A DNA stretch of 64,000 nt from Candidatus Komeilibacteria bacterium RIFOXYD1_FULL_37_29 (GCA_001818495.1 MHKS01000005.1:250038-314037); one strand, 5' to 3'; shown: positions 16,234-34,903, counted from the first letter of the stretch. Numbers and translations: made by a program. The notes: generated by a model from the sequence alone, not told the origin.

Positions 16234-16704
16234 AACTGTCCGGTTTGTGCTAATAAAGATACTAAAGTAGTAGACTCTCGTCTGGGTGGCGAGGGTTTTA
16301 GTATTCGCCGTCGTCGTTTATGTGCCAAATGTAGTTTTCGTTTTTCTACAGTGGAAAAGATGGAAATCTTGGATTTGACCGTGATCAAACGCGATGGTCG
16401 TCGGGAAAATTATAATAAAGAAAAATTAATCAGAGGTCTTAGAACATCTTTAGAAAAAAGACAGTATTTGGAGGATGATTTTTATAAATTGATCAACGAG
16501 ATTGAAAAAGATATTCAAAAAGACGCTAAAAACGAGATAACTTCTAAAAAAATTGGTGAAATAGTCATGAAGCAGCTGAAATCTTTTGATCAGGTGGCTT
16601 ATATCCGCTATGCTTCAGTTTATCGGTCTTTTAAAGATGTCCAGACATTTCAAAAAGAACTCAATCAACTACTGAGAAAAAAGAAAATCAGGCCTCGCTT
16701 GTAG
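16231..16704 (+). CDS. nrdR: transcriptional repressor NrdR
   Basis: Canonical N-terminus MNCPVCANKDTKVVDSRLGGEGFSIRRRRLCAKCSFRFSTVE (zinc ribbon) followed by an ATP-cone region. Confidence 0.95.
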   Translation: MNCPVCANKDTKVVDSRLGGEGFSIRRRRLCAKCSFRFSTVEKMEILDLTVIKRDGRRENYNKEKLIRGLRTSLEKRQYLEDDFYKLINEIEKDIQKDAKNEITSKKIGEIVMKQLKSFDQVAYIRYASVYRSFKDVQTFQKELNQLLRKKKIRPRL

Positions 16705-16716
16705 GCTACGGTCGAG

Positions 16717-16751
16717 GGAAAATAGTTATCCACTTGTGGGCTATTTTTTTT
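16717..16751 (+). terminator. putative intrinsic terminator after nrdR
   Basis: Imperfect hairpin gaaaatag..ccac/gtgg..ctatttt followed by a T8 run (16743-16750). Confidence 0.5.
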
Positions 16752-16779
16752 CATGTTAAGATCATATTACTTTGACAAT

Positions 16780-16952
16780 TCAATCAGGGAAGTGAGGTGT
16801 GAATCCTCTACAGTCCTAGCTACGGTAAGCTCCATGCAAGTATTATGGGGACAAGTCCGATACCTGAGATATTTGCTTTCTCCTAAGGAGAGAAGAGCTA
16901 AATTTATTAACCAATAACTTTAACTCTGCTTTTCTTAGGGCAGAGATTTTTT
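16780..16952 (+). promoter_or_regulatory. cobalamin (B12) riboswitch-like leader with terminator expression platform
   Basis: aatcaGGGAAgtgaGGTGtgAATCCtctaCAGtCCtaGCtACgGTaagc (16783-16830) matches the conserved cobalamin-aptamer core (GGGAA..GGTG..AATCC..GC.G.CC..AC.GT). A B12-box-like agtccgatacctg lies at 16854-16866. Terminator hairpin ctctgc/gcagag plus T-run at 16924-16952. Confidence 0.6.
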
Positions 16953-16978
16953 GTATATAATTTATAATTTAAAATATT

Positions 16979-17065
16979 ATGAACCCCGTTAGAAATTCAT
17001 AAAATATAGCGGGGGAATAAAGAGTAAATATAATATTATGAAAGTTACTAAAATTTTTAACGGGG
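16979..17065 (+). promoter_or_regulatory. second copy of the start-codon-flanking hairpin plus MNPVRNS mini-ORF
   Basis: atg aac ccc gtt aga aat tca taa at 16979-17002. Left arm ccccgttagaaatt (16984-16997) pairs with aatttttaacgggg (17052-17065; 14 bp, one G.U). The loop contains the ATG at 17038. Confidence 0.5.
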
Positions 17066-19596: not shown

Positions 19597-19686
19597 GGAG
19601 AGGTGCTAGAGTGGTTGAATAGGGTGCTCTCGAAAAGCACTAGTCCTGAAAGGGACTCGGGGGTTCAAATCCCTCCCTCTCCGCCA
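19597..19686 (+). tRNA. tRNA-Ser (anticodon CGA), class II with long variable arm, CCA encoded
   Basis: Hand-folded cloverleaf. Acceptor GGAGAGG/CCTCTCC; D stem CTA/TAG; anticodon stem GTGCT/AGCAC with loop CTCGAAA; variable-arm hairpin AGTCC/GGACT; T arm GGGGG-TTCAAAT-CCCTC; discriminator G plus CCA. Confidence 0.9.
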
Positions 19687-20051
19687 TCCTTCGCTAAAGC
19701 TACGGAATGACTAGCCATATGTTATATTATACTTACATTTTATTAAGCTCAAAATCTCATATTTTTTATTTTGGTTCAACGAATAATTTAAAAAATAGAT
19801 TGGAGCTGCATAATAGCGGCAAGGTAACATCAACTAAATCGCATATACCTTGGAAATTAGTTTGGTATTGTGTATTTGAAACGGAAAAACAGGCAAGAGA
19901 TTTTGAGCTTTATTTAAAAACAGGGTCAGGAAAATCTTTTGCTTATAAAAGACTTATTTCCGTGGCTTTAGAGAAGGATTTCAGGGAAGGGAGAATAGGT
20001 AGTCCGAAGCGGAAGCCTTAGCTTTTGCGAAGGATACCTCCCTCTCCGCCA
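19687..20051 (+). mobile_element. 365-bp GIY-YIG gene cassette bounded by 14-bp inverted repeats and a 15-bp duplication of the tRNA-Ser 3' end
   Basis: cctccctctccgcca occurs at 19672-19686 (tRNA 3' end) and again at 20037-20051. IR-L tccttcgctaaagc is at 19687-19700 and IR-R gcttttgcgaagga at 20021-20034 (1 mismatch). Confidence 0.55.
19707..20021 (+). CDS. small GIY-YIG (URI-domain) nuclease family protein
   Basis: YYTYILL...IFYFGSTNNLKNRLELHN...E...K matches the GIY...YIG...R...E layout of COG2827-type proteins. The start may instead be the ATG at 19719. Confidence 0.8.
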   Translation: MTSHMLYYTYILLSSKSHIFYFGSTNNLKNRLELHNSGKVTSTKSHIPWKLVWYCVFETEKQARDFELYLKTGSGKSFAYKRLISVALEKDFREGRIGSPKRKP

Positions 20052-20158
20052 GATTACCAAGTTTGAACCCAAGCAAAATAAGGGTTTTGTGCTATTGAAA
20101 AGCCGGTGTCCGAATAAGGTGCTGATTTTTTAAAATCCTTATCAAATGAGTAAATTTT

Positions 20159-20167
20159 TGGTAAAAT
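20159..20167 (+). promoter_or_regulatory. extended -10 promoter element (tggtaaaat) upstream of mod
   Basis: A TGn-TAAAAT element 24 nt upstream of the ATG at 20191. The same TGnTAnAAT style recurs at other operon starts in this window. Confidence 0.4.
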
Positions 20168-20190
20168 AGAGTTAATAAGAATAGAATTAT

Positions 20191-22020
20191 ATGTCTAAAA
20201 AAATTGATTACGACAACTGGTCAAAAGATGAGATAATCAAGGAGATTAGGCGAATCAAAGAAACTACATACGGACTTGTGTGGCATCGCGACTTACCTGA
20301 GGAAAAAATTGATATTCTTATAAACCCAGATGCTCGGACTCCAAATGAAATGTTCCCTAACGAAATGGCGGGCAAGCCATTTCCAGTTTTGAAAGAGGCA
20401 AAAACAAAAACAATTGAGACTGATAAAAATAAGCCGACAAATATTTTGATTGAGGGTGATAATTATCATTCTCTTGCCGTTTTGAATTTTACTCATCAAG
20501 AAGCAATTGATTTGATTTACATTGATCCGCCTTACAATACTGGCCACAACGATTTTGTTTACAATGATAAAATTAAAAGCGGTTATGTTGTTAAAGATGA
20601 TCCATTTAGGCATAGTAAATGGATTTCTTTCATGGAAAAAAGGTTAAAACTCGCAAAAAATTTATTGAAATCGTCGGGTGTTATTTTTATTAGTATTGAC
20701 GACAATGAATTTGCTCCATTAAAAATGCTGTGTGACGAGATTTTTGATGAAAGTAATTTCATCTCTATGTTGTCAATTGAAAATAATCCTAAGGGACGGA
20801 AAAACTCCGATTTTATATCTATTTGTAATGATTATTGTCTTATATACGCTAAAGACAAAGGTAAAAGTTATTTTGTTGAAAATATTCCCAAACAAGCTGA
20901 CGACTTAACGATTGATGATAATGGAGACTATGTACACAATAGCGGCAAACGGGTCCTTGTTGGAGAAAATAAATTTAATCCGCTTGTAGAAGATTTTGAA
21001 TCAGCTAAGCATTATAGTGTTTATTACAATCAGACTGATAATAAAATTAAAATAGAGGTGGAAAAAAATATTCACGAGGCAAACAAAGATTTATTAAAAA
21101 ACGGATATAAAAGATACTATTCTTATTTTGGAGACAGATTTGTCTTGAATACTTATACAAAATCAAAAATCATAGAGCTTTTCGAAGATGAGGCTCTCGA
21201 ATTCAAAAATGGGAGTATATATGAAAAAAATTTCAGCACAACAATTAGACTAAAAAGTCTTGTTATCAATAAAAAATATGAGGCAGTAATAAATAATGAA
21301 AAAGCAGAATATCAAATAGATGTTAAAACGACTTCAGCGAAGACTGAATTAAAGGATATTTTCAACACTGACCAAATTCCATTTGATAACCCCAAGAATA
21401 TTGGTTTGATAAAATTATTGGTAACATTATTTGAAAATAAATCAATAACTATTTTAGATTTTTTTGCAGGATCGGGAACGACCGGGCATGCAGTCCTTGG
21501 TCAAAATAAAGAAGATGGAGGAAATCGACAATTTATTCTGTGCACGAATAATGAAAATAATATATGCACTGATATCTGCTATCCCCGTCTTGGAAAAGTT
21601 ATAAAGGGATATAAAAATTCAAGAAATGAAAAAATTGATGGTTTGGGTGGAAACCTGAGATATTTTACTGCTTATGACTTTGTAGAAGCTAAGGAAACAG
21701 ATAGAAACAAAAGAAAACTAGTAAACCAATCAACAGAAATGCTTTGCATTAAGGAAAATGCTTTTGAGCTTGTGCAAGAAGTTGAAGATTATAAAATCTT
21801 CAAGAATCATGATAAATATTTGGGAATTATTTTTCATGAAGATTCTATATCGGACTATGTCAAAGCAATAAAAAAGATAAAAGGACACTTTAATACTTAT
21901 ACATTTTCAATGACGGATGATCCTCACAAAGAGGAATTTACTGATGTTGCGGACAAAGTAACTCTTTGTGCAATTCCAGAAATGATTTTGAAAGTATATC
22001 ATGAGATTTTCAAGGAATAA
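20191..22020 (+). CDS. mod: Type III restriction-modification DNA methyltransferase (Mod, beta-class N6A/N4C)
   Basis: 609 aa. Catalytic IDPPYNTG sits near the N-terminus (nt 20524-20535) and the SAM-binding FFAGSGTTGHAV near the C-terminus, with a variable middle region (TRD). Followed directly by a res-like helicase-nuclease gene. Confidence 0.85.
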   Translation: MSKKIDYDNWSKDEIIKEIRRIKETTYGLVWHRDLPEEKIDILINPDARTPNEMFPNEMAGKPFPVLKEAKTKTIETDKNKPTNILIEGDNYHSLAVLNFTHQEAIDLIYIDPPYNTGHNDFVYNDKIKSGYVVKDDPFRHSKWISFMEKRLKLAKNLLKSSGVIFISIDDNEFAPLKMLCDEIFDESNFISMLSIENNPKGRKNSDFISICNDYCLIYAKDKGKSYFVENIPKQADDLTIDDNGDYVHNSGKRVLVGENKFNPLVEDFESAKHYSVYYNQTDNKIKIEVEKNIHEANKDLLKNGYKRYYSYFGDRFVLNTYTKSKIIELFEDEALEFKNGSIYEKNFSTTIRLKSLVINKKYEAVINNEKAEYQIDVKTTSAKTELKDIFNTDQIPFDNPKNIGLIKLLVTLFENKSITILDFFAGSGTTGHAVLGQNKEDGGNRQFILCTNNENNICTDICYPRLGKVIKGYKNSRNEKIDGLGGNLRYFTAYDFVEAKETDRNKRKLVNQSTEMLCIKENAFELVQEVEDYKIFKNHDKYLGIIFHEDSISDYVKAIKKIKGHFNTYTFSMTDDPHKEEFTDVADKVTLCAIPEMILKVYHEIFKE

Positions 22021-22024
22021 TTAT

Positions 22025-24262
22025 ATGTCATGGATTAATTTTAAAAATTATCAAGAAACTGCAATCGATGAAATACGCGACAAGATTAATGCCCTGCTCA
22101 AAAAAGAGGGTAATAGACTTTGCGTATTCAAAGCTCCGACTGGTTCGGGGAAAACTTTAATGATGGCGGAATGGATGATGAGGTTTTGTGACCCATATTC
22201 GCGAATTGATGGGAAAACTTTTTCTTTTGTATGGATAGCAGTAAATAAATTACATGATCAAAGCCATGACAGTTTAAAAAAGTTTTATGAGCTCAAAGGA
22301 GCGGGGCTTCGTTGTTCATATTTTCACGAACTTGAGGATAGAAAAATAAAACAGAACGAGATTTTATTTTTGAATTGGGCAAGTATCAATAATGAAGACA
22401 AGATTATTGTTCGCGCGAATGAAAGAGATAATAATCTCTCAACAATAATTGATCGGACCAAAGATGCCAGTCGGACAATTATTTTGATTATCGACGAAAG
22501 CCACCATACCGCAAAAAGTAAAAATTCAAAGGCTTTAATAAAAAATATTGACCCTAAAATTACGATCGAGGTTTCTGCTACACCAGAAATTTTTGATTTT
22601 GATGAGCGGGTAACCATTGATATTGAGGATGTACGAAGCGAGGAAATGATAAAGAAAGAAATTGTAGTGAACCCTGGCTTCAAAAATTACACAGTTGATC
22701 CAAAAAAGAACGATCAAACAGCAGACGAATTAATCTTGAAGTCTGCTTTGCAAAAAAGGATTGATTTGCGAAAAAAATTAGAAAAAGATGGTTCAAATGT
22801 CAATCCCTTATTACTTATTCAATTACCGGATACAAAAAAAGGAGTTCCTGATAAAAAAGAGGAGATTGAAACACTTCTTGCTAAATTTGGCTATACAACA
22901 AAAAATGGAAAGTTGGCTGTCTATCTTTCTGAAAAAGATAACAAAATAAATCTTGCTAATATTGAGAAAAATGAAAACGAAGTGGAGGTAATGATGTTCA
23001 AGCAAGCGATTGCACTTGGTTGGGATTGTCCAAGAGCTACAATTCTTGTGCTTTTCCGTCAATGGAAAGATGAAACGATAACATTCTCAATCCAAACATT
23101 GGGAAGAATCATGCGTATGCCTGAGCAAAAACATTATAAAGATCAAGAGTTGAATATTGCTTATCTTTATACTAGTTTACAAGACATTAATACTCGTATT
23201 TTGAAAGGTGCTTCGTCGGGAATAAAATCTCTTACGAGTTATCGCAATGAGAAATATAAAAATATTGACCTAATTTCATATCACTCAAAACGATTCCGTG
23301 AGGAAACTCGTTTGTCTTCTGATTTTGTGAAAATTTTTATCGAAGCCGCTAAAAAAACAAATTTAAAAGATGTTTCGCTAAAAGTCGGGATTGTGAAAAC
23401 AACAATGATCAAAGATGGACGCGTGGAAAATGCGGATAAAGAAATAACAAAGATTGAAAGTGATACTTTTTCTATACCCAAAACAGAGACGGAGCTGCAA
23501 TATACTTTTGATATGTTTGTGCTTGATAATCTTGATCCGTTTGAACATGAAGCCCGTTCTATAAAACGCATAAACGATTCAATTTATACTTTCTTTGGCG
23601 CACGACGCAAAGAAGATGAATGGCCTAAAATACAAGCCACGATACTTTCGTATGAAAAGAATCGCCAAGCTGTAATTGATGCTATTAATCTAGCAAAAGA
23701 TTTATATAAAACCGAAGTTGGAAAAGGCAAAAAAGAACTGATACAAAATGATGAGCCGTGGAATGTGCCAGAAGCTATTAATTTTGATCCGTCATTTGTA
23801 GAGCAAAATTATAAAAAATCTATAATGCAACCATATTACGCTCGTTCTCGGGATGGAGAAAACGGACGATTGTTTGAGGACAGTGAAATTGAAAATGATT
23901 TTATTAAATACCTAGAAAAAGCACAGAAAGTTGTTTGGTGGTTCAGAAATGGGAAACAAGACGGATCATTTTTTGCTGTCCCGCACATTGAACACGGACA
24001 AGAAAAGCCGTTTTATGTTGATTTTATAGTTATGATGAAAAATGGAACTGTTGGGCTTTTTGATACAAAATCAGGATATACTGCCGAACTAGCAAAATCT
24101 CGCTCTGATGGACTTGTAAAATATATTAATGAGCAGAAAAAGAAAAAAATTACTGGCGGAATTGTGAGATACGAAAAGAAAAGTTGGCTATATTTTACTA
24201 ACAAAGAATATAAATATAATCCGAATGATATAAAGGATTGGGAATTTTTGGATTTGAATTAA
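22025..24262 (+). CDS. res: Type III restriction enzyme Res subunit (SF2 helicase + PD-(D/E)xK nuclease)
   Basis: Helicase motifs FKAPTGSGKT, IIDESHH and QTLGRIMR. C-terminal nuclease-like FYVDFIV...GLFDTKSG. The ATG at 22025 has an aagga SD-like element; the alternative start at 22001 overlaps mod. Confidence 0.85.
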   Translation: MSWINFKNYQETAIDEIRDKINALLKKEGNRLCVFKAPTGSGKTLMMAEWMMRFCDPYSRIDGKTFSFVWIAVNKLHDQSHDSLKKFYELKGAGLRCSYFHELEDRKIKQNEILFLNWASINNEDKIIVRANERDNNLSTIIDRTKDASRTIILIIDESHHTAKSKNSKALIKNIDPKITIEVSATPEIFDFDERVTIDIEDVRSEEMIKKEIVVNPGFKNYTVDPKKNDQTADELILKSALQKRIDLRKKLEKDGSNVNPLLLIQLPDTKKGVPDKKEEIETLLAKFGYTTKNGKLAVYLSEKDNKINLANIEKNENEVEVMMFKQAIALGWDCPRATILVLFRQWKDETITFSIQTLGRIMRMPEQKHYKDQELNIAYLYTSLQDINTRILKGASSGIKSLTSYRNEKYKNIDLISYHSKRFREETRLSSDFVKIFIEAAKKTNLKDVSLKVGIVKTTMIKDGRVENADKEITKIESDTFSIPKTETELQYTFDMFVLDNLDPFEHEARSIKRINDSIYTFFGARRKEDEWPKIQATILSYEKNRQAVIDAINLAKDLYKTEVGKGKKELIQNDEPWNVPEAINFDPSFVEQNYKKSIMQPYYARSRDGENGRLFEDSEIENDFIKYLEKAQKVVWWFRNGKQDGSFFAVPHIEHGQEKPFYVDFIVMMKNGTVGLFDTKSGYTAELAKSRSDGLVKYINEQKKKKITGGIVRYEKKSWLYFTNKEYKYNPNDIKDWEFLDLN

Positions 24263-24265
24263 ATT

Positions 24266-25450
24266 ATGGCATTAGAATCAGAAAAATTGGAAGAAAAAAT
24301 AGTTGATAATTATTTTACTGATACTCTATATAGTAGTCGGGAATTTAAGGGTGGAGTAGGTAAATTTTTTACAATAGTATCTCAGGATGAAAATGATATC
24401 CCAAATGTAGTTGATGTTGAGCATTCGTATCCTATACGCAATAAAATAAAGACAACGCTGACATTTATCAAAAAAGAAAACGAAATTACAGCCATTTCCT
24501 TTAAGCGTTTTAAATATTATAAAAAAGAACATTGGGTTGAACAACCAGAAGAACAGATTACTTTTTCATACAGTCTTTTTAAAAAAATTATTGGGTATTT
24601 ACAGTTACTATCAGAATTAAATTTGTCGGCTATTAGTGAGCGAAGAATTGCTTTAGCCGATGACACATTACCGAATATTGACGATGAAACAAAAAAGAAG
24701 ATTAAAACATTGCTTTTACGCAAAGATGGGCAAAAAATTATTGAGGAATTAATAAATAGCGGAATAATTACATCAACCGATATTGTAAATATCGGGTATC
24801 GAAAAAAACAACTTGATGTTTTTGAGAAGCTCCTGACACAACCCGATTATTTTGCAACCTATATAACTGAAAGTAAAATTACAGATACTCGTCATGAGTC
24901 TGTTTGGCAACATTTCTTCCATTCTAATGATTGGATTTTTGGATATGGACTAGATTATCGCTTTCTTGGCATCCTGCAAAAAGAAGCTCATATTTCAAAT
25001 ACAGACGTCGCAGGAAAAGGGGCTGTTATAAATGATTTTCTACTCGGGTGCAATAAATTCACCGTTTTGGTTGAATTAAAAAAACACGACACACCATTAT
25101 TTGGAAAAGACAAAAACCGGTCAAACTCTTGGACACTTTCAGATGATTTAATATCTGGTCTATCTCAAATATTAGAGCAAAAAGCTAGTTGGCAGGTTTC
25201 GGCCGAGACAAATGCAAGTGGAAATTTTGACGATAAGGGTAATTTGATAAAACAAAAAACTATCGATCCAAAAAGTATCTTAGTTATCGGATCAACAAAG
25301 CAATTTGATGGTGATGATAAAGAAAATCAAATTAAAGCAAAAACCTTTGAACTTTTTAGACGAGATTCAAGAAATATAGAAATTCTTACTTATGACGAAC
25401 TGTATGAGAGAGCGAAGTTTATTGTTGAACATAAACAGAAAGACAACTAG
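24266..25450 (+). CDS. DUF4263 / Shedu (SduA)-like PD-(D/E)xK nuclease-domain protein
   Basis: 394 aa. The C-terminal half reads WQHFFHSNDWIFGYGLDY...VINDFLLGC..FTVLVELKKHDTPLF...ILVIG...FELFRRDSRNIEILTYDELYERAKF, the layout I associate with DUF4263. Starts 4 nt after the res stop. Confidence 0.6.
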   Translation: MALESEKLEEKIVDNYFTDTLYSSREFKGGVGKFFTIVSQDENDIPNVVDVEHSYPIRNKIKTTLTFIKKENEITAISFKRFKYYKKEHWVEQPEEQITFSYSLFKKIIGYLQLLSELNLSAISERRIALADDTLPNIDDETKKKIKTLLLRKDGQKIIEELINSGIITSTDIVNIGYRKKQLDVFEKLLTQPDYFATYITESKITDTRHESVWQHFFHSNDWIFGYGLDYRFLGILQKEAHISNTDVAGKGAVINDFLLGCNKFTVLVELKKHDTPLFGKDKNRSNSWTLSDDLISGLSQILEQKASWQVSAETNASGNFDDKGNLIKQKTIDPKSILVIGSTKQFDGDDKENQIKAKTFELFRRDSRNIEILTYDELYERAKFIVEHKQKDN

Positions 25451-26416: not shown

Positions 26417-26666
26417 TTTTCACTGTCTTTTCAGGCAGTTTTTTGGTATAATCAAAGCATTAATTAATAAAAATATTATGATTGACGAAGAAATAAAGCA
26501 AATTATTCAGGAAAATAAGGACACTTTGGCTAATATTGATAAAAGGATTGGTCGGATTGAGAAAAATTTTATTTGGAGTTCAATTTTTGGTTTTATAAAG
26601 ATTGTTATTATTGTAGCACCGATTGTTTTTGGTATTATTTATTTTACGCCATTTTTGAAAGATTTA
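26417..26666 (+). repeat. left copy of a ~250-bp direct repeat (promoter + 5' part of a small TM-protein gene)
   Basis: Aligns with 33400-33649 at a fixed offset of 6,983 nt. I count about 9 mismatches, and the first ~104 nt are identical. Contains tggtataat (26444-26452). Confidence 0.9.
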
Positions 26667-26690
26667 AATAAATTGGGTATTATTACATAA
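26478..26690 (+). CDS. small TM protein, truncated paralog of the 33461-33811 gene
   Basis: 70 aa. MIDEEIKQIIQENK..NIDKRIGRIEKNFIWSSIFGF.KIVII is nearly identical to the N-terminus of the downstream paralog and diverges after FTPFLKD. Confidence 0.6.
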   Translation: MIDEEIKQIIQENKDTLANIDKRIGRIEKNFIWSSIFGFIKIVIIVAPIVFGIIYFTPFLKDLNKLGIIT

Positions 26691-26707: not shown

Positions 26708-28426
26708 ATGAAAAAGTCAAAAGTCATATTAGGGATTACTGCCTTTAATCATGATTCTTCGGCGTGCTTAATTTATCAAGGTAGAGTAATTGCATTTTGT
26801 GAGGAGGAAAGATTCAATGGCATAAAACATACCGGAGATTTTCCGATAAAATCAATTTTATTTTGTTTAGAAAAAGCTGGTTTGTCATTAAATGATGTGA
26901 CTGATGTAGCTTTTTATTTTAATATTAAAAAATGTTTATTGAGTTATATAAAGAACAATAATCCACTCTATTATATTATTCATCCATCTTTATTTAAGAG
27001 GAAAAGATTTTATTATGAAATTATTTGGTTATTTAGTTTTATAAACAAAATTAATTCAATTAAAAAACTCCTTAATAATTATAAGATAAAGATTACTTAT
27101 GTAGATCATCATATGGCGCACGCTTGGTATGGGTATTTTTCTTCAAATTTTAAAAATTGCACGGTAGTTTCTAATGACAGCGTAGGCGAGAGTGTGAGTA
27201 GTTTAGCCGTAAAGATACAGAGAGAAGATAAAAAAATTATTTTTGGTAAGACATTCAGTCAAACAGACCCTCACTCTATTGGGTATTTGTATGGTGCTAT
27301 AACTGAATTTTTAGGATTCAAAAGAGGTCAAGACGAAGGAAAGGTTATGGCTATGGCGGCTTTAGGGAAAGATAAATATGTAAAATATTTTGATGACTTG
27401 ATTAGATATTTACCTAATGGGGAATTTAGAATAAGTAAGGAGTTGATTTCCTTACGTAATTTTCAGCCAAAATCACAAAGATTAAGCAATGATTTTTTAA
27501 AAAAATTTGGATATTATCGTCAACCCCAAGAACCATTTATCCAAAAGCATTATGATATTGCTTATGCAATACAAGGGGTAACGGAAAAAATTTTATATCA
27601 CCAATTAAAATATATTAATGATGATAATATAGTCATTACTGGTGGTATTGCTCAAAATAGTGTAGCCAACGGGAAACTCAACAATTTTTTTTATAAAAGA
27701 AATATATTTATTCCTCCGATTCCTAATGATGCCGGGTGTGGTATTGGCGCGGCGCTTTCTTTATATTATAAGTATTATGAAGATTTACCAGAGTTTGTGG
27801 ATACTGCGTTTTTAGGCCCAGAATTTTCTGATCATAAAATCATTAAAACATTAGAAAATAATAAAATAAATTTTAAAATTATAAAAAATCAGACGGAATT
27901 CATTATTAATGAGCTTTTGAAAAATAAGATTATCGCTATATATAGAAATGAGATGGAGTGTGGTCCTAGGGCATTAGGTAATAGGAGTATAATAGCCAAT
28001 CCAATTGATCCGGCGATGAAGAATTACATCAATGAAAAAATAAAACACCGTGAATTTTTTCAGCCATACGGCGGGTTGATTATTGATAAAAATGTTAAAG
28101 AAGTATTTGATTATAAGAATAAAAATATTTCCGGACCATATATGTCTTTTGTTTATCCAATTAAAGATAAATGGTTAAAAATGTTTCCATCTTTGGTTCA
28201 TTTTGATAAAACTTCTAGAATTCAAATAATAAAGAAGGAACAAAATTTTTTATATAGTCTCTTGGAAGAATTTTATAAAAAAACAGGTGTCCCCGTAATT
28301 ATAAATACTTCCCTTAATTTAAGAGGGCAGCCTATGGCAAGAAGCCATCAAGATGCTTTAAACACATTTTATAATTCGGGGATTCATTATATTTTATTTA
28401 ATAACAGTATTCTAGTTTCAAAATGA
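26708..28426 (+). CDS. NodU/CmcH/TobZ-family O-carbamoyltransferase
   Basis: 572 aa. N-terminal ILGITAFNHDSSACLIYQGRVIAFCEEERFNGIKH, VDHHMAHAWYGYF, and C-terminal domain ECGPRALGNRSIIANP. Confidence 0.85.
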   Translation: MKKSKVILGITAFNHDSSACLIYQGRVIAFCEEERFNGIKHTGDFPIKSILFCLEKAGLSLNDVTDVAFYFNIKKCLLSYIKNNNPLYYIIHPSLFKRKRFYYEIIWLFSFINKINSIKKLLNNYKIKITYVDHHMAHAWYGYFSSNFKNCTVVSNDSVGESVSSLAVKIQREDKKIIFGKTFSQTDPHSIGYLYGAITEFLGFKRGQDEGKVMAMAALGKDKYVKYFDDLIRYLPNGEFRISKELISLRNFQPKSQRLSNDFLKKFGYYRQPQEPFIQKHYDIAYAIQGVTEKILYHQLKYINDDNIVITGGIAQNSVANGKLNNFFYKRNIFIPPIPNDAGCGIGAALSLYYKYYEDLPEFVDTAFLGPEFSDHKIIKTLENNKINFKIIKNQTEFIINELLKNKIIAIYRNEMECGPRALGNRSIIANPIDPAMKNYINEKIKHREFFQPYGGLIIDKNVKEVFDYKNKNISGPYMSFVYPIKDKWLKMFPSLVHFDKTSRIQIIKKEQNFLYSLLEEFYKKTGVPVIINTSLNLRGQPMARSHQDALNTFYNSGIHYILFNNSILVSK

Positions 28427-29247
28427 TTAAAGATTTTCAAAAGATAGAGTTTTTAAAATCACTTTACAGTGATAAAGACTTAATATCGTTTCGTGGCAAT
28501 TTTTTAAAAAATAATTCCAACCGTAAATTCTCATTAAGATCTTTTATTATTAAACTTTTGCCGATGCTAAAGGATAAAAAAATATTAGACATTGGTTGCG
28601 GAGACGGGTCATTCCTCAATAAATTACATACGGTATATCCTCAAAATAAATATTTTGGTTTGGATGTAGTAGATAATGCTAAATGCCATAAATTGAAATT
28701 TCTTGACTACAAAATTTATGATGGTAAATCCAGGGTTTATTATACGGAAAAATTTGATGTGATATTTTGTATGCACACTGTTTATCATATCGAAGATTTA
28801 TTCACTTTTTTTACAACGATGAAAGACTATTTAAAGCCCCATGGCATTATTATCATTACTACGAAGTCTAAATTGACTTTTCCTAAAATAGAATCAATCT
28901 TTTTAAAGATTGTCGGTAAGCTTGACTTAAAAAAATATTTAAAAATTAGCAAACACAGAGAGGAATCAAAATTTTGTTTGGAGAACGGATTAAACAGATT
29001 AAAAAAACACTTCGCTAGGCGGTCATTTAGTATAAATGAGTATGTTTTAGAAACGCAGGTTTTTGTTAATGACAAAAAAGATCTTTTGAAATATGTTTTT
29101 TCTACAAATAGATATAATATTTTGAAAGATACTTTAAACAAAAAAATTGTTGAAAAATATACAAAACTTTGGTTTGAAGAAATTGATAAAGATCAGATAT
29201 TCATTGATAAATATACGGAGGCTGTTTATTTAATAAAAAAATTATGA
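28423..29247 (+). CDS. class I SAM-dependent methyltransferase
   Basis: 274 aa with ILDIGCGDGSF motif I, YFGLDVV and FDVIFCMHTVYHIEDL. ATGA overlap with the carbamoyltransferase stop. Confidence 0.75.
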   Translation: MIKDFQKIEFLKSLYSDKDLISFRGNFLKNNSNRKFSLRSFIIKLLPMLKDKKILDIGCGDGSFLNKLHTVYPQNKYFGLDVVDNAKCHKLKFLDYKIYDGKSRVYYTEKFDVIFCMHTVYHIEDLFTFFTTMKDYLKPHGIIIITTKSKLTFPKIESIFLKIVGKLDLKKYLKISKHREESKFCLENGLNRLKKHFARRSFSINEYVLETQVFVNDKKDLLKYVFSTNRYNILKDTLNKKIVEKYTKLWFEEIDKDQIFIDKYTEAVYLIKKL

Positions 29248-30311
29248 AAATAGGTTATAGTTGCTGGGGATTTTTGGGTAACGGAATAAAGGATACACCG
29301 GATGGCGGGAGGAGTCACCGGTTGACTTTATTGAAAGAATTAATCCGTCAAGGAGTTGAAATAGTAATGTTGCAAAAGAATAGAGACCTCATTGAAGGCA
29401 ATCAAAGTTTTTCACGAAAGAATTTAATATTTAGTGGTGAGTTACCGGAAATAGATGCTCTATTTGTAGAATATAGATGGAAGATAGTAGGAAGGAATTA
29501 TAAGGTGAGAAAAAATAATCCAGCCTATACTCCGGATTTCGATAGACAGAGTGAATTAATTAATTTTTATAATAATAGAAATATTCCTATTATTATTTGG
29601 GATAAAGATCAGAAACTTGGTAAGAATGAAATAAAAGGCATTAAAAATTTGATTGTATTTGAACCTGCTTTAAAGCCAAGGTTTAATAGAAAAAGTTTAT
29701 TGTTTCCGATGGACAATCATAGAACAAAAATTGTCCTCAAATTGATAGGTAAGTATAAAAAAAATATTAAGAGCTCCAAGTTGTGTTACATTGGAAATCA
29801 ATATGAGAGAGATGGTAGTTTTAAAGAGTTTATTAATAAGCCAGCCAGTATGCTCGATACCAAAACACCAGTATTTGGTAATTGGAACAAATATCCAGAA
29901 AAGTATAAGCAAAATATGCAAAAATTTTCCAATGTTGAATTTAAAGGTAGGGTGCAGTTTAATAAAGTTAATAATATTTATAAAAAATCTTTTTCTACAG
30001 TTCTTATCGCGCCACGGAGATATTATATCACGGGTCATTTTACACAAAGATTATTTGAGGCAATGTGGGGCTTATGCATTCCTTTTACCCCGCAGCAATA
30101 TCATGGATGGCAGGGTTTAATAATAAAAGATTTTATAATTAGATCTGGCAAAGATTTAATAAATAAGATAAAAAAATTAGAAACAACGCCCGATTCAGAT
30201 ATAAGGAGAATGTTTGATAGACAGTTTGAGAAACTTAATTTATTTAATGCCAGTAAACAAGCCAGTATAATTATAAACGAAATCAATAATCATAATGGTA
30301 GACTCGGGTAA
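29244..30311 (+). CDS. hypothetical protein, possibly GT-B-fold (CgeB/DUF3880-like) glycosyltransferase
   Basis: 355 aa. The C-terminal half (YIGNQYERD...VEFKGRV...YKKSFSTVLIAPRRYYITGHFTQRLFEAMWGLCIPF) resembles the donor-binding half of GT-B enzymes. The assignment is by eye only. ATGA overlap with the upstream gene. Confidence 0.3.
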   Translation: MKIGYSCWGFLGNGIKDTPDGGRSHRLTLLKELIRQGVEIVMLQKNRDLIEGNQSFSRKNLIFSGELPEIDALFVEYRWKIVGRNYKVRKNNPAYTPDFDRQSELINFYNNRNIPIIIWDKDQKLGKNEIKGIKNLIVFEPALKPRFNRKSLLFPMDNHRTKIVLKLIGKYKKNIKSSKLCYIGNQYERDGSFKEFINKPASMLDTKTPVFGNWNKYPEKYKQNMQKFSNVEFKGRVQFNKVNNIYKKSFSTVLIAPRRYYITGHFTQRLFEAMWGLCIPFTPQQYHGWQGLIIKDFIIRSGKDLINKIKKLETTPDSDIRRMFDRQFEKLNLFNASKQASIIINEINNHNGRLG

Positions 30312-31074
30312 TAAAAATAAATCTTTAGAAATTGTAATTGATTCTAAACACTATATTAAAAAAAGATATTCTGATATCCAACGTTTTTTTTGTGAATTAA
30401 AATATCTTAAATATTTTAAAGATGAAGATATCAATGTTCCTTTTATATATAAATTTGATAAAATCCAAAAAACAATAATAATAGATAAAATAAAGGGGAA
30501 AATCGGCGATTCATTAAATAATAGAGACACAAAACTATGCATTGATGTGCTTGTCAAAATAATTTTTATTTTTGGTTTGGAAAAGAAAAATAATAATGAA
30601 ATTGATAGGTATATTTCAAAAGTCAGGTCAAATATAATATGGTGGTGTGAAAATAATAATTATATAGTAGAAAAAGAAAAATTAAATATTTTACTTCAAA
30701 AGTTAAGAAAAGTGTGTTATATATCTTTATTCAAAGATGCCAAACCATCTAATTGGATTTTTCAAAAAGATAAAATATACGCAATAGACTTTGATTATGT
30801 AAAAAAATCATTTTTTTTAGCAGATTTAGCACAACTTTTAAGTTATATTTCATTAAGGAAAAAAATAAGTTATATTTTCTTTGTAAATTATTATCTAAAG
30901 CAAATATTCCCAAAAATGAAGGATTATGATAAATTTTATATACCTTTTAAATTAGCGCTTGTTAATTCCAACATTGCTTCTGAACTTCACAGAGAGAATT
31001 TAGGAGCCTATGTAAAAAGGGGTTTTGCCAAACAAAACAGGTTTATTTTGAGTGAATTTAAGATAATATTATAA
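30295..31074 (+). CDS. protein-kinase-like fold kinase (APH/Bud32/LPS-kinase-like)
   Basis: 259 aa. Catalytic-loop-like FKDAKPSNWIF followed by IYAIDFDYV (DFG-equivalent). Overlaps the upstream gene by 17 nt. Confidence 0.5.
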   Translation: MVDSGNKNKSLEIVIDSKHYIKKRYSDIQRFFCELKYLKYFKDEDINVPFIYKFDKIQKTIIIDKIKGKIGDSLNNRDTKLCIDVLVKIIFIFGLEKKNNNEIDRYISKVRSNIIWWCENNNYIVEKEKLNILLQKLRKVCYISLFKDAKPSNWIFQKDKIYAIDFDYVKKSFFLADLAQLLSYISLRKKISYIFFVNYYLKQIFPKMKDYDKFYIPFKLALVNSNIASELHRENLGAYVKRGFAKQNRFILSEFKIIL

Positions 31075-31955
31075 TGTCAATATCAATAACCGCCAAATCA
31101 GCTAATGAAGCATTCATTAAAATAGCTGATAAATTGTATAATAATCCGGAATATGTTTCTAGTCCTCGAAGCTGGGAAACAAGGGAGTTATTAGGGGCTT
31201 TTATTGTTATCAACAATCCCTATGATCGTTTTATAAATAATGTTCATAGGAAGATTTCTTTAAAGTATCTTATTGGTGAATGGTTATGGTATGAGCGAGG
31301 ATCCAATTCTTTAAATGAAATTAATTATTATGCAAAATTTTGGAGCAGTATTTCGGATGATAAAATAACTGCCAATTCAGCTTATGGTCATAGAATTTTA
31401 GGGATCAATAAGTTCGTGATTATTAATCAATGGAAGTGGGCCAAACGGCAAATAATAAAAGATAAGGAAACAAGGAGAGCCATCATTTTTATTGGATTGC
31501 CAAGTGATATGAAAAACGAAACGAAAGATTTTCCTTGCACTATGTCACTCCAGTTTTTAATAAGAAATAATGAGTTACATTTAATTTGCAATATGAGGAG
31601 CAATGATTTAGTATTGGGTTTTACTTATGATGTAGCTACCTTTACTTTATATCAAGAAAAAATGTTGTTGGAGTTGAAAAAATATTATCCAAAATTAAAG
31701 ATAGGTAAATATTTTCATATGGTAGGCAGTTTACACGTATATAAGAAAAACTATGAGATGATAAAAAAAGTGATAAATGATCAGGACAATAATTTGAAAA
31801 TTACCATGCCTCGCATGGGTGATTTAAAAGAAATAAAAAAACTCCAGTATAACGAGAGTATTATAAGAGAAAATAAAAATAAAAAGTTTAAAAAAATTGA
31901 AGATAGATTCTGTATCTGGTGTCAGAATATTTTATTAAATAAAATTAAATACTAA
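31074..31955 (+). CDS. thymidylate synthase (ThyA) superfamily enzyme with Asp at the Asn177-equivalent position; candidate deoxycytidylate/cytidylate C5-hydroxymethylase or methylase
   Basis: Hand alignment to E. coli ThyA. GEWLWYERG ~ ELLWFLQG; TRRAIIF ~ SRRIIVSAW; FPCTMSLQF ~ APCHAFFQF (Cys codon 31536-31538); MRSNDLVLGFTYDVATF ~ QRSCDVFLGLPFNIASY (Asp codon 31629-31631 replaces Asn177); GSLHVY ~ GDTHLY. TAATG overlap with the upstream gene. Confidence 0.7.
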   Translation: MSISITAKSANEAFIKIADKLYNNPEYVSSPRSWETRELLGAFIVINNPYDRFINNVHRKISLKYLIGEWLWYERGSNSLNEINYYAKFWSSISDDKITANSAYGHRILGINKFVIINQWKWAKRQIIKDKETRRAIIFIGLPSDMKNETKDFPCTMSLQFLIRNNELHLICNMRSNDLVLGFTYDVATFTLYQEKMLLELKKYYPKLKIGKYFHMVGSLHVYKKNYEMIKKVINDQDNNLKITMPRMGDLKEIKKLQYNESIIRENKNKKFKKIEDRFCIWCQNILLNKIKY

Positions 31956-31956
31956 A

Positions 31957-32628
31957 ATGAAAGGCATAATTATAGACGGAGTTGTTTCTTCTGGTAAAAC
32001 GTCTATCTTAAAACATCTTCATCGTCTGATTTCAGAACAAAACCCTACTTCAACCAAGTTTTTTATTAGTGAACACTATACTGAGAGAATGTTGGAGCAT
32101 TTGAAAGATAAAGGTGAATTAGACGGTAGCCATATAAAAGCCCACGTTGATCAGTTAATCCATACTTTAGCTTCTTTTCAGTCTATGTTGGATAATTCTA
32201 AGTTTCGTGATAACCCGAAAGGAGCAGATTTGTTTGTTACTTTAGAAAGATTTATTCTAACCCATTTGTCCTCAGTGGACATAGGAGATAAATATAGTCT
32301 TGATGAAGTCAAAGCTCATTTTGAAATTTTAAACAAGCTAGGAGTAAAACAAGTAGCTTTAATAATTCCCGAATCAAGACTAAAAGAAAATATCATGTCG
32401 ACTCTGCAATATCGAAATGACGCCTGGTTGGATTATTTGTATTCTAGGGGTGGAGAAAAAGAAATTATAGAATATTATATCAATTGGCAGAATAATTTTT
32501 TAGAGTATATCAACAAATTTAAAGATATAATAGATACCTTAGTCATCGAAGTAAAAGATCAAGACTATCTTCAATATAGTAATACTATTTTTAATAGTTG
32601 TATTAAATCAGATATTCTCTCAAAATAA
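31957..32628 (+). CDS. P-loop kinase, (deoxy)nucleoside/nucleotide-kinase-like
   Basis: 223 aa. Walker A IIIDGVVSSGKTS at the N-terminus and a possible ERS-like LERF motif. Starts 2 nt after the ThyA-like stop. Confidence 0.4.
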   Translation: MKGIIIDGVVSSGKTSILKHLHRLISEQNPTSTKFFISEHYTERMLEHLKDKGELDGSHIKAHVDQLIHTLASFQSMLDNSKFRDNPKGADLFVTLERFILTHLSSVDIGDKYSLDEVKAHFEILNKLGVKQVALIIPESRLKENIMSTLQYRNDAWLDYLYSRGGEKEIIEYYINWQNNFLEYINKFKDIIDTLVIEVKDQDYLQYSNTIFNSCIKSDILSK

Positions 32629-33114
32629 ATGTTTTTTAATTTTATGTTTTTTATACTTTACCCCGGCTAAATCAAAGAGTTTTTTAGAAACGATAAAATT
32701 ATTCGCATCTTTGTCTGATCTATCATCTTGATAGATTATATTTTTTATGCCGCTTTGGATAATAATTTTTGCACACTCATTGCAGGGGAAGAGTAAACAG
32801 TAAAGTTTTGCATTTTCGGCTGATTGATTAGTATTTAAAATGGCATTTACTTCAGCGTGAACAACATACGGATATTTTGTATTTAAGATATTTTTTTTGT
32901 TATGCCCGTAATTATTACTCCAAGAAAAATGCCCTTCCTTAATACCTCTAGGCCAACCGTTGTAGCCAACTCCTAAAACAACATTATTTTTATCAACCAC
33001 GACAGCTCCGGTTTGAGTTGATGGGTCTTTTGATCTCTGAGCTATAACTTGAGCCATTAGCATAAATGTTTCATCCCACGATAAATAGTTTTTTCTAGCT
33101 TTTATATTATCCAT
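32620..33114 (-). CDS. dCMP deaminase (ComEB/Cd family)
   Basis: 164 aa. Zinc motifs VHAEVNAI and PCNECAKII, with N-terminal SWDETFMLMAQVIAQRSKDPSTQTGAVVV. Convergent with the operon, with a 9-nt 3' overlap. Confidence 0.9.
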   Translation of the reverse strand: MDNIKARKNYLSWDETFMLMAQVIAQRSKDPSTQTGAVVVDKNNVVLGVGYNGWPRGIKEGHFSWSNNYGHNKKNILNTKYPYVVHAEVNAILNTNQSAENAKLYCLLFPCNECAKIIIQSGIKNIIYQDDRSDKDANNFIVSKKLFDLAGVKYKKHKIKKHLF

Positions 33115-33399: not shown

Positions 33400-33649
33400 T
33401 TTTCACTGTCTTTTCAGGCAGTTTTTTGGTATAATCAAAGCATTAATTAATAAAAATATTATGATTGACGAAGAAATAAAGCAAATTATTCAGGAAAATA
33501 AGGAAACTTTAGCTAATATTGATAAAAGAATTGGTCGGATTGAGAAAAATTTTATTTGGAGTTCAATTTTTGGTTTTGTAAAGATTGTTATTATTTTAGG
33601 GCCGATTATTTTTGGTATTATTTATTTTACGCCATTTTTAAAAGATTTT
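33400..33649 (+). repeat. right copy of the ~250-bp direct repeat
   Basis: See the left copy. Contains tggtataat at 33427-33435 and the ATG at 33461. Confidence 0.9.
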
Positions 33650-33811
33650 ATTCGTATTTATGAACCATTTTTCAAGAATCTACCGATTACTTTACAAAAT
33701 TTAAACAATCCTTCTTCGGACTCAAATATTCCAACTGGCGCTCAGGCTGGGTTAGAAAATTTTTGTGATCCACAAGTTCGCGAGGCCATGATCGATAGTC
33801 TTTGTAAATAA
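33461..33811 (+). CDS. small TM protein (full-length paralog), hypothetical
   Basis: ATG at 33461 corresponds to the start of the left-copy ORF and sits downstream of the repeated promoter. The ORF-track start at 33386 would place the promoter inside the coding region. Confidence 0.6.
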   Translation: MIDEEIKQIIQENKETLANIDKRIGRIEKNFIWSSIFGFVKIVIILGPIIFGIIYFTPFLKDFIRIYEPFFKNLPITLQNLNNPSSDSNIPTGAQAGLENFCDPQVREAMIDSLCK

Positions 33812-33817: not shown

Positions 33818-34903
33818 ATGGAAGAATTACGCAGTAAAATAAAAACTTTATTTTTGGAGATTTCTAAATCTTTGAAAATTTTTGATTTAGAAAATAAAAA
33901 AAGTAAATTGGGAGAACTCAAAAACGAAATGACCAGACCAGACTTTTGGAATGACCAAGAACGAGCCAAAAATATTAGCTGGCAAGCCAGTGTTTTGGAG
34001 AAGGGTATCAATGACTGGCAGAATATAGCCAAGGAAGTAGCCGAGCTTAATGATTTGTCTCAAGATCAGCAGGCTGAGGAGTTATTAAAAGAATTGGAAA
34101 ATAAGTATAATATTCTTTATAATCAATTTACATCTTTGGCCGTTCAACTTTTTCTGCAAGGAAAATATGACGAGCTAGCCGCTATCATCACTGTCAATGC
34201 TGGAGCCGGAGGAGTAGATGCTCAAGACTGGGCGCAAATGATCGAAAGAATGTATTTACGACTAGCTGAGAAAAATAATTGGCAGGTCCATTTGATGTCG
34301 CGTTCAGTCGGCTCGGAAGCAGGGATTAAAAGTGTGATTTTTAAAGTCCAAGGTCCTTATGCTTATGGCTATTTAAAAAACGAAGCTGGAGTACATCGTT
34401 TGGTCCGTTTGTCGCCTTATGATGCTGATCACGCCCGGCATACTTCTTTTGCTATGTTAGAAGTTTTGCCGGAGATAATCAATCCGGAGATAGATATCAA
34501 AGAAGAAGATATCAAAGTTGATACTTTTCGGTCTTCTGGTAATGGCGGTCAGTCGGTCAATACTACTGATTCGGCTGTGCGGGTGACACATCTACCAACG
34601 GGAATTTCCGCTGGCTGTCAAAACGAGAGATCACAGATACAAAATAAAAAGCAAGCTCTCAGTCATCTCTACGCCAAATTGCAAAAATATTATGAGGCCG
34701 AGCAAGAAGACGAAAGAAAAATGATAAAGGGAGAATATACCGAAGCGGCTTGGGGCAATCAAATTCGCTCTTATGTTATTCATCCGTATAAAATGGTCAA
34801 AGACCATCGGACAAATTTTCAGTCCAAAGATCCAGACAGGGTCTTAGGTGGAGATTTAATGCCATTTATTAAGGCCAATTTGGAAAAAAATGTAGTGGCC
34901 TAA
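33818..34903 (+). CDS. prfB: peptide chain release factor 2, encoded without the programmed +1 frameshift
   Basis: 361 aa. HRLVRLSPYDADHARHTSFAMLEVLPE (RF2 SPF-region, here SPY) and SGNGGQSVNTTDSAVRVTHLPTG (GGQ). The N-terminus IFDLENKKSKLGELKNEMTRPDFWND is contiguous in one frame. Confidence 0.9.
   Translation: MEELRSKIKTLFLEISKSLKIFDLENKKSKLGELKNEMTRPDFWNDQERAKNISWQASVLEKGINDWQNIAKEVAELNDLSQDQQAEELLKELENKYNILYNQFTSLAVQLFLQGKYDELAAIITVNAGAGGVDAQDWAQMIERMYLRLAEKNNWQVHLMSRSVGSEAGIKSVIFKVQGPYAYGYLKNEAGVHRLVRLSPYDADHARHTSFAMLEVLPEIINPEIDIKEEDIKVDTFRSSGNGGQSVNTTDSAVRVTHLPTGISAGCQNERSQIQNKKQALSHLYAKLQKYYEAEQEDERKMIKGEYTEAAWGNQIRSYVIHPYKMVKDHRTNFQSKDPDRVLGGDLMPFIKANLEKNVVA

Follow-up and report, generated by a model that had tools for sequence, protein, structure and literature searches.

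A gene of the thymidylate synthase (TS) family in the genome of Candidatus Komeilibacteria bacterium RIFOXYD1_FULL_37_29 (GCA_001818495.1), a member of the Candidate Phyla Radiation (CPR), encodes a protein of 293 amino acids (aa) which, to judge from its active-site residues, is very probably a cytosine-nucleotide C5-hydroxymethylase and not an enzyme producing deoxythymidine monophosphate (dTMP). The gene is located in a stretch of 64,000 nucleotides (MHKS01000005.1:250038-314037), below referred to as the window, and is one of six genes of a single operon, together with genes for an O-carbamoyltransferase, an S-adenosylmethionine (SAM)-dependent methyltransferase, a GT-B glycosyltransferase (GT), an APH/Bud32-like kinase and a P-loop protein. 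A pathway led by a deoxycytidine monophosphate (dCMP) hydroxymethylase, with kinase, glycosyl, carbamoyl and methyl steps to follow, was found to be the best overall explanation of this operon, and we hold it to be quite likely.

The protein was aligned by MAFFT (L-INS-i) with ThyA of E. coli K-12, gp42 of phage T4 and residues 7-226 of MilA, the latter taken from the Protein Data Bank (PDB) alignment. With E. coli ThyA (EC 2.1.1.45) it had in common the fold, the catalytic Cys (Cys155, E. coli C146), the phosphate-binding Arg residues (Arg134/Arg135 aligned with R126/R127 and Arg175/Ser176 with R166/S167), as well as Glu69 (E58), Tyr104 (Y94), Asp178 (D169) and His221/Tyr223 (H207/Y209). It differed from ThyA by Asp186 at N177, Thr156 at H147, Asp152 at L143, Met174 at Q165 and Ile93 at W83. 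Asn177, the hydrophobic seal Leu143/Trp83 and His147 of ThyA were thereby all lacking. When 13 active-site positions were scored (E/Y/R/R/D/C/T/M/S/D/D/H/Y), the departures from ThyA were L143D, H147T, Q165M and N177D, and the protein was identical at all 13 to T4 gp42 (PDB 1B5E, 6A9A; EC 2.1.2.8), which has the same TS fold. At the W83 position, Ile is present in the Komeilibacteria protein and Val in gp42.

A previous reading of this DNA, made from the sequence only, had described a ThyA homologue with Asp at the position of N177 and with the catalytic Cys retained, and both the MAFFT and the phmmer alignments placed these residues at the codons listed in Table 1. Asp186 was found opposite Asp186 of MilA and Asp179 of T4 dCMP hydroxymethylase (dCH) in independent phmmer alignments to solved structures, and Asp, not Asn, occupied the N177 position in each of three independent alignments (PDB phmmer, homologue set, MAFFT). 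The motifs quoted in support of that reading (the Cys of FPCT, the RR of TRRAIIF, RS, the E of GEWLWY and the H..Y of GSLHVY) were all present in the DNA and its translation. Thr in place of the His following the Cys was also correctly noted, but this is not an additional oddity as had been supposed, since T4 gp42 (MCT) and MilA (ACT) share the Thr with the protein studied here (PCT). Asp177, Thr147 and Cys146 were found in 120 of 120 database homologues, and Met165 in 119, with Leu in the remaining one. The Asp/Thr substitution is therefore a character of the clade and not a chance event, being invariant in all 120 homologues.

The Pfam family PF00303 matched the protein (E 5e-22), in agreement with a TS fold. 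Among the ThyA equivalogs of NCBIfam the best score was 62.7 bits, compared to cut-offs of 327 or more. In a phmmer search of the PDB, MilA was ranked first (E 1.5e-30, over residues 12-235), followed by T4 dCH (E 1.3e-17) and by true thymidylate synthases from approximately 1e-13 downwards. The proposal of the sequence-only reading that the enzyme would act on a cytosine nucleotide rather than make dTMP is thus supported by Asp186, by the sub-cut-off ThyA scores and by MilA and gp42 as closest solved relatives. The role it had attributed to the Asn/Asp switch is borne out by published work: Asp179 in T4 and Asp186 in MilA select cytosine, where Asn selects uracil (PMC5175136), and Asn to Asp at position 177, followed by His to another residue at position 147, are the two TS sites that best discriminate phages with cytosine-modified DNA (PMC8670742).

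The signature of hydroxymethylases consists of an acidic residue at Cys-3 (T4 Asp145, E. coli TS Leu143) and a Ser/Thr-x-Tyr motif (T4 Ser94 and Tyr96), and the T4 D145N variant is inactive (PMC6400193, PMC13326640). Both elements were present, as K-D152-F-P-C155 and N-S102-A-Y104. A hydroxymethyl product rather than a methyl or hydroxyl product is predicted because of Asp at Cys-3, the S-x-Y motif and the Asp equivalent to D169. A dCMP C5-methyltransferase (XP12-like, making 5-methyl-dCMP) or a flavin-dependent 5-hydroxy-dCMP synthase (RB69 gp48-like) would also display Asp177 and the TS fold, and is nevertheless very improbable. For the methylase, an Asp instead of a hydrophobic residue at Cys-3 correlates with hydroxymethyl products, and a methyl product is moreover excluded because the O-transferases downstream need a hydroxyl, an argument that does not touch a 5-hydroxy product. 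The 5-hydroxy-dCMP synthase is argued against by the retained Asp178, as D169N is found in all tested enzymes of this subtype (PMC13326640). A divergent genuine thymidylate synthase, which together with the dCMP deaminase next to the operon would lead from dCMP via dUMP to dTMP, has the PF00303 match, its database name and the adjoining deaminase in its favour and can be practically dismissed on the five active-site exchanges relative to ThyA (N177D, H147T, L143D, Q165M, W83I), the low model scores, the grouping with hydroxymethylases, the setting in an operon of transferases and the canonical L/H/Q/N signature kept, in an Amoebophilaceae genome, by a true ThyA that is encoded close to a GT homologue.

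Deoxyribose specificity in these enzymes arises from Ser167/169 together with Arg126'/123', where MilA and BcmA have Ala and Lys, and the A176S/K133R exchange in MilA flips the preference from CMP to dCMP (PMC5175136). Since Arg134 and Ser176 constitute the deoxyribose-type pair, dCMP is probably the substrate rather than CMP. MilA of Streptomyces rimofaciens and BcmA (PDB 5B6D, 5JNH, 5JP9) are the closest solved sequences, and MilA resembles the protein in its Cys155/Asp186 numbering, its cellular origin and its C-terminal extension. Being the top PDB match, MilA suggested that the protein might be a CMP-specific MilA orthologue. This assignment was disfavoured, as Lys133/Ala176 of MilA correspond to Arg134/Ser176 and no domain of the MilB/BcmB N-glycosidase type was detected in the cassette proteins with Pfam or NCBIfam; the partner genes in the window are others. 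A few TS homologues of the clade, including one of Salinispora, carried Lys126 with Gly167, along with Glu207 or Asn209, instead of Arg/Ser/His/Tyr. This pattern is MilA-like and would be ribose-permissive, and the sugar specificity may differ between cassette lineages.

By analogy to T4 gp42, Cys155 would attack C6 of dCMP, while Asp186 would bind, orient and protonate the cytosine at N3/N4. The methylene group of methylenetetrahydrofolate would then be passed to C5, and a water molecule activated by Asp152 would quench the exocyclic methylene in place of a hydride transfer. The expected products are 5-hydroxymethyl-dCMP and tetrahydrofolate, with no dihydrofolate released. The hydroxymethylase itself thus joins an already known kind of enzyme, and what sets the locus apart is the company of the gene.

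The six genes make up one translationally coupled operon, with stop/start overlaps at 28423/28426, 29244/29247, 30295/30311 and 31074 (TAATG) and a spacer of 1 nt at 31955/31957. The closest structures to the carbamoyltransferase in the PDB were 7xb6 (carbamoyltransferase), GdmN, NovN and TobZ. In the proposed pathway, the hydroxymethylase would be the entry enzyme, the protein with nucleoside-monophosphate (NMP)-kinase fold would phosphorylate the modified nucleotide, and the GT resembling T4 DNA beta-glucosyltransferase (BGT) would glycosylate the 5-hydroxymethyl group. The O-carbamoyltransferase, the SAM methyltransferase and the APH-like kinase would decorate the product further, and the adjacent dCMP deaminase would balance the dC/dU pools, as in T-even phages. 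For the methyltransferase, the APH-like kinase and the P-loop protein these suggested roles are drawn from their folds and from analogy.

Table 1. Features of the window, in order of position.
Feature	Position	Strand	Basis and remarks
tRNA-Ser(CGA)	19597-19686		
GIY-YIG gene	19707-20021		
Type III restriction-modification, Mod	20191-22020		
Type III restriction-modification, Res	22001-24262		
Shedu SduA	24266-25450		PADLOC E 1.7e-154
Second SAM methyltransferase, 197 aa	25794-26387		Methyltransf_11/25; just outside left repeat
Left copy of 249-nt direct repeat	26417..26665	.	includes truncated 70-aa duplicate (26478-26690) of 5' end of small membrane-protein gene
O-carbamoyltransferase (NodU/TobZ/GdmN type), operon gene 1	26708..28426	+	PF02543 + PF16861; phrog_1601 E 1.7e-112
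Class I SAM-dependent methyltransferase (BioC/UbiG-like)	28423..29247	+	kept in CPR cassettes
GT-B glycosyltransferase resembling T4 BGT, 355 aa	29244..30311	+	AlphaFold 2 (AF2) model, Foldseek, hhalign
APH/Bud32-like small-molecule kinase	30295..31074	+	weak PF01636 and Bud32 matches; orthologues elsewhere score as APH
TS-fold pyrimidine C5-hydroxymethylase, predicted dCMP 5-hydroxymethylase, 293 aa	31074..31955	+	ATG start; PF00303, PDB matches, active-site signature
Arg134 codon, deoxyribose-type partner of Ser176	31473..31475	+	alignment; PMC5175136
Asp152 codon at Cys-3 (E. coli L143, T4 D145), hydroxymethylase water-activating residue	31527..31529	+	alignment; signature PMC6400193, PMC13326640
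Catalytic nucleophile Cys155 codon TGC (E. coli C146), followed by Thr156 (E. coli H147)	31536..31538	+	MAFFT alignment
Ser176 codon (E. coli S167, T4 S169, MilA Ala176)	31599..31601	+	alignment; MilA mutagenesis PMC5175136
Cytosine-specifying Asp186 codon GAT (E. coli N177, T4 D179, MilA D186)	31629..31631	+	alignments and literature
P-loop protein, NMP-kinase fold, 223 aa	31957..32628	+	AF2 model, Foldseek, Walker motif DGxxSGKT
dCMP deaminase (ComEB type), convergent with operon, inside repeat-bracketed unit	32620..33114	-	PF00383 E 2e-23; phrog_174
Right copy of 249-nt direct repeat	33400..33648	.	96% identical; covers 5' end of intact small membrane-protein gene 33461-33811

The GT had no Pfam match and hundreds of homologues, some of which displayed a weak CgeB-type GT domain (PF13524). 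An AlphaFold model built on an alignment of 52 sequences reached a pLDDT of 95, and the five top Foldseek matches in the PDB were all T4 BGT (E 9e-11 to 1.5e-9, TM 0.59-0.66). By hhalign the donor-binding domain was aligned to that of T4 BGT (E 4.4e-5), and Y-x-G...R189 and T-x-R269-x-[FW]-E272 of the GT were superposed on the UDP-binding residues of BGT. A direct BLASTP comparison with T4 BGT was suggestive at best (E 0.09) and a plain phmmer search of the PDB gave nothing useful, for which reason the structure model and hhalign were needed to reveal the relationship. Some CPR homologues of the GT were 592-618 aa long, approximately the summed lengths of the GT and the APH-like kinase, and may represent natural GT::kinase fusions, to judge from their length.

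The model of the P-loop protein (pLDDT 89) matched adenylate kinases, many dTMP kinases and nucleoside kinases in Foldseek. Its likeness to thymidylate kinase (Tmk) domains was otherwise limited to the Walker motif: phmmer and profile searches of the PDB yielded noise or P-loop motif matches only, and hhalign against a phage TS::Tmk fusion and against a 169-aa P-loop protein of Streptomyces aligned the Walker motif alone.

For the distribution of the cassette, GTDB was scanned with one genome for each species, and 335 relatives of the GT were found; the best 80 loci, ranked by similarity to the CPR query, were examined. Of these 80, 76 had the cassette core. A carbamoyltransferase was present in 77, the TS homologue in 76, the methyltransferase in about 70, the APH-like kinase in 69 and the small P-loop protein in 68, and the carbamoyltransferase was paired with an Asp177 TS homologue in 74 or more. 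The carriers were mostly actinomycetes, joined by Paceibacterota, Saccharibacteria, Woesebacteria, a Rickettsiales metagenome-assembled genome (MAG), a Bdellovibrionales MAG and Anaerolineae. The hydroxymethylase/cytosine signature was found in 74 of the 76 cassette TSs. Residue 167 was Ser in 39 of the 76. Gly167 was counted 33 times, in the long cassettes of Streptomyces, and occurs there with Arg126. An Amoebophilaceae MAG served as an internal control; its GT relative was flanked by a methyltransferase and a canonical ThyA only, so that this genome lacks the cassette.

Diverged CPR genomes (Woesebacteria and another member of the Patescibacteria) kept the cassette, with TSs 51-58% identical and a sulfotransferase sometimes inserted. 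In the Woesebacteria and Saccharibacteria cassettes, a dCMP deaminase gene was located directly 3' of the TS gene in the same orientation, its product being 24% identical over 136 aa to the deaminase of the window. GT homologues with 36-41% identity led to the same gene set in Streptomyces and Agrobacterium. The Streptomyces locus contained the genes for TS, carbamoyltransferase, GT, small P-loop protein, methyltransferase and APH-like kinase, and in addition HAD, His_Phos, epimerase, NUDIX and cytidylyltransferase genes. In Agrobacterium tumefaciens (contig QSNR01000020.1) the same core was found, the TS gene being followed by genes for an ABC ATPase and two ABC2_membrane_6 permeases (locus 14585-17223) that resemble an exporter.

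Several of the carriers outside the actinomycetes are host-dependent or predatory, namely the CPR phyla, the Rickettsiales MAG and the Bdellovibrionales MAG, with Anaerolineae as the exception. As a CPR query was used to rank the loci, this trend may be a sampling bias. In two Streptomyces loci a Type IV restriction gene of the GmrSD family (GmrSD_N, GmrSD_C and DNA_binding_1; 1-996) was located approximately 6 kb upstream of the cassette. The GmrSD family attacks DNA containing glucosylated 5-hydroxymethylcytosine (hmC). The proximity may be a coincidence or may reflect a functional link, for example in telling self from non-self modified DNA.

Relatives of the cassette genes were also found in viral sequences. 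TS homologues 44-46% identical to the Komeilibacteria protein were fused to a thymidylate-kinase-like domain, and a phage-like contig encoded a carbamoyltransferase, a TS::kinase fusion (TS 45% identical) and DNA polymerase III alpha. Twelve viral contigs of IMG/VR contained relatives of the GT, and in 9 of them a TS homologue was located within 8 kb, often adjacent. Three viral GTs matched the cellular GT family at 34 of its 34 invariant residues; for one of these three the gene was situated on a phage contig of 330 kb, within a replication module with helicase, exonuclease and split DNA polymerase genes. The order in another viral locus was DNA polymerase III alpha, GT, TS, sugar epimerase and thymidine kinase. 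Phage carbamoyltransferases were approximately 24-30% identical to that of the window, with 26-30% for those of cultured phages. The GT had no homologue in a set of 50,697 deposited phage genomes.

In phages, two published pathways cover parts of the cassette. The combination of a carbamoyltransferase, an Asp177 TS and a dCMP deaminase co-occurs only on contigs of phages with cytosine-modified DNA, and the phage carbamoyltransferase converts 5hmC to 5-carbamoyloxymethylcytosine in single-stranded DNA, dNTP and RNA (MetaGPA, eLife 2021, PMC8670742). The window has the same pair of an Asp177 TS and a NodU/TobZ-type carbamoyltransferase next to a dCMP deaminase, with the differences that a GT-B, a methyltransferase and two kinases are added to the pair and that it is located in a bacterial chromosome. 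In a second group of phages, a T4-BGT-like GT-B puts a heptose on 5hmC DNA with the help of an APH-like kinase and a cytidylyltransferase; these systems are mostly ThyS-associated, and sugar-activation genes and APH-like kinases are normal parts of such DNA-glycan pathways (bioRxiv 10.1101/2023.12.21.572611). The 'subclass III' GT-B clusters of that study resemble the cassette in the T4-BGT-like GT-B, the APH-like kinase, the epimerase and the associations with ThyS and dCMP deaminase. They differ in that the characterised pathways use 5hmC made by 5mYOX/TET and that no carbamoyltransferase is mentioned, and their cellular distribution is not described there. A TS homologue and a dNMP kinase have been shown to suffice for placing modified cytosine in the DNA of E. 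coli (PMC13326640).

In phage T4, as in the window, the hydroxymethylase is accompanied by a BGT-like GT, a protein of NMP-kinase fold and a dCMP deaminase, and gene 42 adjoins beta-gt. The overall similarity between gp42 and the Komeilibacteria protein is however weak, and the latter has a C-terminal extension of approximately 55 residues. The window gene is furthermore a cellular one in a Komeilibacteria chromosome, a dCTPase was not found beside it, and carbamoyltransferase, methyltransferase and APH-like kinase genes are present in addition.

The final acceptor of the modification may be the organism's own DNA, by a T4-like pre-replicative route, or a free nucleoside, and we modestly favour DNA at a confidence not quite reaching an even chance. 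The clustering of an Asp177 TS homologue with a GT of the DNA type, T4 BGT-like, in one operon is in line with a DNA acceptor. This route is further favoured because the hydroxymethylase has deoxy-type determinants, because a gene of NMP-kinase fold is coupled to it and a dCMP deaminase travels with the unit, and because the nearest structure to the GT is a DNA enzyme and its orthologues sit in phage replication modules. The full form of this proposal, in which dCMP would be converted to 5-hydroxymethyl-dCMP and on to the triphosphate, incorporated into the cell's own chromosomal DNA and there decorated with glycosyl, carbamoyl and methyl groups in CPR bacteria, Rickettsiales, Bdellovibrionales and many actinomycetes alike, is put forward as a tentative possibility that we rather doubt.

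Several observations weigh against a hydroxymethylated-DNA pathway. To our knowledge, there is no cellular genome with hmC made by the TS route. Neither a dCTPase (gp56) nor a MazG-type gene was detected among the cassette genes and the genes next to them in the window, the cassette included no recognisable DNA polymerase or DNA-binding component, and no phage structural genes were found near it in the window. Other GT-B enzymes follow T4 BGT closely in the Foldseek ranking, so that the lead of BGT is marginal, and the P-loop protein matches NMP kinases at the level of the fold only (TM approximately 0.5). The best sequence match of the hydroxymethylase, MilA, is CMP-specific and not a dCMP enzyme. 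Gly167, which would admit ribose, is present in 33 of the 76 cassette TSs. The longer actinomycete versions, with their HAD and His_Phos phosphatases and NUDIX, look like a nucleoside natural-product cluster, and ABC-transporter genes were found beside the cassette in the Agrobacterium locus and in 3 of the 80 scanned loci.

The last of these observations suggest a biosynthetic cluster whose product would be free and perhaps secreted, a hydroxymethylcytosine nucleoside or nucleotide with an antibiotic- or antimetabolite-like function. In such a cluster the TS homologue would act as MilA/BcmA, the transferases would serve for tailoring and the APH-like kinase for self-resistance or activation. 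MilA as the closest solved relative, the abundance of the cassette in actinomycetes, the sugar-nucleotide epimerase and cytidylyltransferase of the long versions along with HAD, His_Phos and NUDIX, the exporter-like ABC genes directly downstream in Agrobacterium, the ribose-permissive Gly167 of Streptomyces TSs and the relatedness of the carbamoyltransferase to the natural-product enzymes GdmN, NovN and TobZ are all in line with this explanation. We still regard it as unlikely for the window. The enzyme has the deoxy-type Arg/Ser and not the Lys/Ala of MilA/BcmA, the window cassette proteins lack a MilB/BcmB-type N-glycosidase domain, and in CPR bacteria the cassette comes together with the NMP-kinase-fold gene and the dCMP deaminase. 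Phage replication modules contain exact orthologues of the GT, a setting in which a secreted metabolite would be hard to understand, and sugar-activation genes and APH-like kinases are equally normal in the DNA-glycan pathways of phages. Agrocin 434, a disubstituted cytidine nucleoside of Agrobacterium, may be linked to the Agrobacterium locus; a literature search for it yielded review mentions only.

The cassette merges hmC carbamoylation and GT-B glycosylation modules that were each described only in phages in the literature searched, adds a methyltransferase and two kinases, and is cell-encoded across several phyla. No description of the six-gene cassette was found in the open-access full-text literature searched, which is weak evidence of novelty, and the cassette appears to be undescribed so far. 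Every source that gives this gene or its homologues a name calls them 'thymidylate synthase', a label that would wrongly credit minimal CPR genomes with dTMP synthesis and that hides a cytosine-modifying pathway. Hypermodified cytosine would cease to be a trait of viruses alone if the product resides in DNA, with consequences for sequencing, restriction biology and the interactions of CPR symbionts with their hosts. Should it be the carrier's own DNA that is modified, this would be the first case of hydroxymethylcytosine made by the TS route, and of carbamoylated or glycosylated cytosine, in a genome that is not viral, and could shield the DNA of a parasite or producer from nucleases. If a free nucleoside is made instead, the cassette would define a widespread uncharacterised family of hydroxymethylcytosine natural products. 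Cultivable carriers of the cassette include Kitasatospora phosalacinea NRRL B-16228, Streptomyces tanashiensis JCM 4086 and Micromonospora pattaloongensis DSM 45245.

The cassette of the window is bracketed by two copies of a 249-nt direct repeat, 6983 bp apart from start to start, which enclose exactly the operon from the carbamoyltransferase to the P-loop protein and the dCMP deaminase. A terminator-like hairpin, ACTGTCTTTTCAGGCAGT and then a T-run, is shared by the two copies at their start. The bracketing by direct repeats, with a truncated gene duplicate in the left copy, gives the unit of approximately 7 kb the look of a discrete insertion and suggests that it was inserted, or is excisable, as a block; no integrase was seen with it. 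The GC content dropped from approximately 0.36-0.40 to 0.27-0.30 across 26-33 kb of the window. The surroundings are chromosomal, with ybeY, dagK, ftsA, ftsZ and nrdR upstream and prfB, comEC, ndk and rpsL downstream. The neighbouring proteins were 100% identical to those of Candidatus Komeilibacteria RIFOXYC1_FULL_37_11, and identical loci were found in several groundwater assemblies from Rifle.

Upstream of the left repeat, the region 19597-25450 has a GC content below that of its flanks and looks like a tRNA-adjacent defence island adjoining the cassette. From this position the cassette might be read as an inducible antiviral system, which upon infection would turn the dCMP/dCTP pool into bulky hydroxymethyl-derived analogues that starve or poison phage replication. 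The cassette follows right after the Type III restriction-modification and Shedu genes in a low-GC island downstream of tRNA-Ser, Streptomyces copies adjoin the GmrSD-type restriction gene, and the direct repeats bracket the unit as they would a mobile cassette. We nonetheless consider an antiviral role improbable. PADLOC gave no matches for the TS, the GT, the carbamoyltransferase or the kinases, only a domain-level mad2 match for the methyltransferase and, for the deaminase, one to a dCTPase model. The cassette showed no identifiable sensor or regulator, a route of six enzymes is elaborate for the depletion of a pool, and the defence-gene neighbourhood was looked at in few loci only. A gene similar to the second SAM methyltransferase gene, at the edge of the left repeat, was also found upstream of the Woesebacteria cassette, on the opposite strand.

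Two further observations concern more distant parts of the window. An open reading frame (ORF) of 3578 aa at 77-10813 displayed an N-terminal segment similar to type IV secretion system (T4SS) pilins and repeated Ig-like domains (He_PIG, Big_5), and is followed by two TSP3-repeat proteins (10835-12854); it is probably a giant surface or adhesion protein of the type typical for CPR episymbionts. Downstream of the right repeat, prfB (33818-34903) is an uninterrupted ORF of 361 aa with PCRF and RF-1 domains, whereas another assembly of this locus (9000-10113) has it split into two predicted genes, of 259 and 108 aa, which could be due to an assembly error there or to a frameshift polymorphism.

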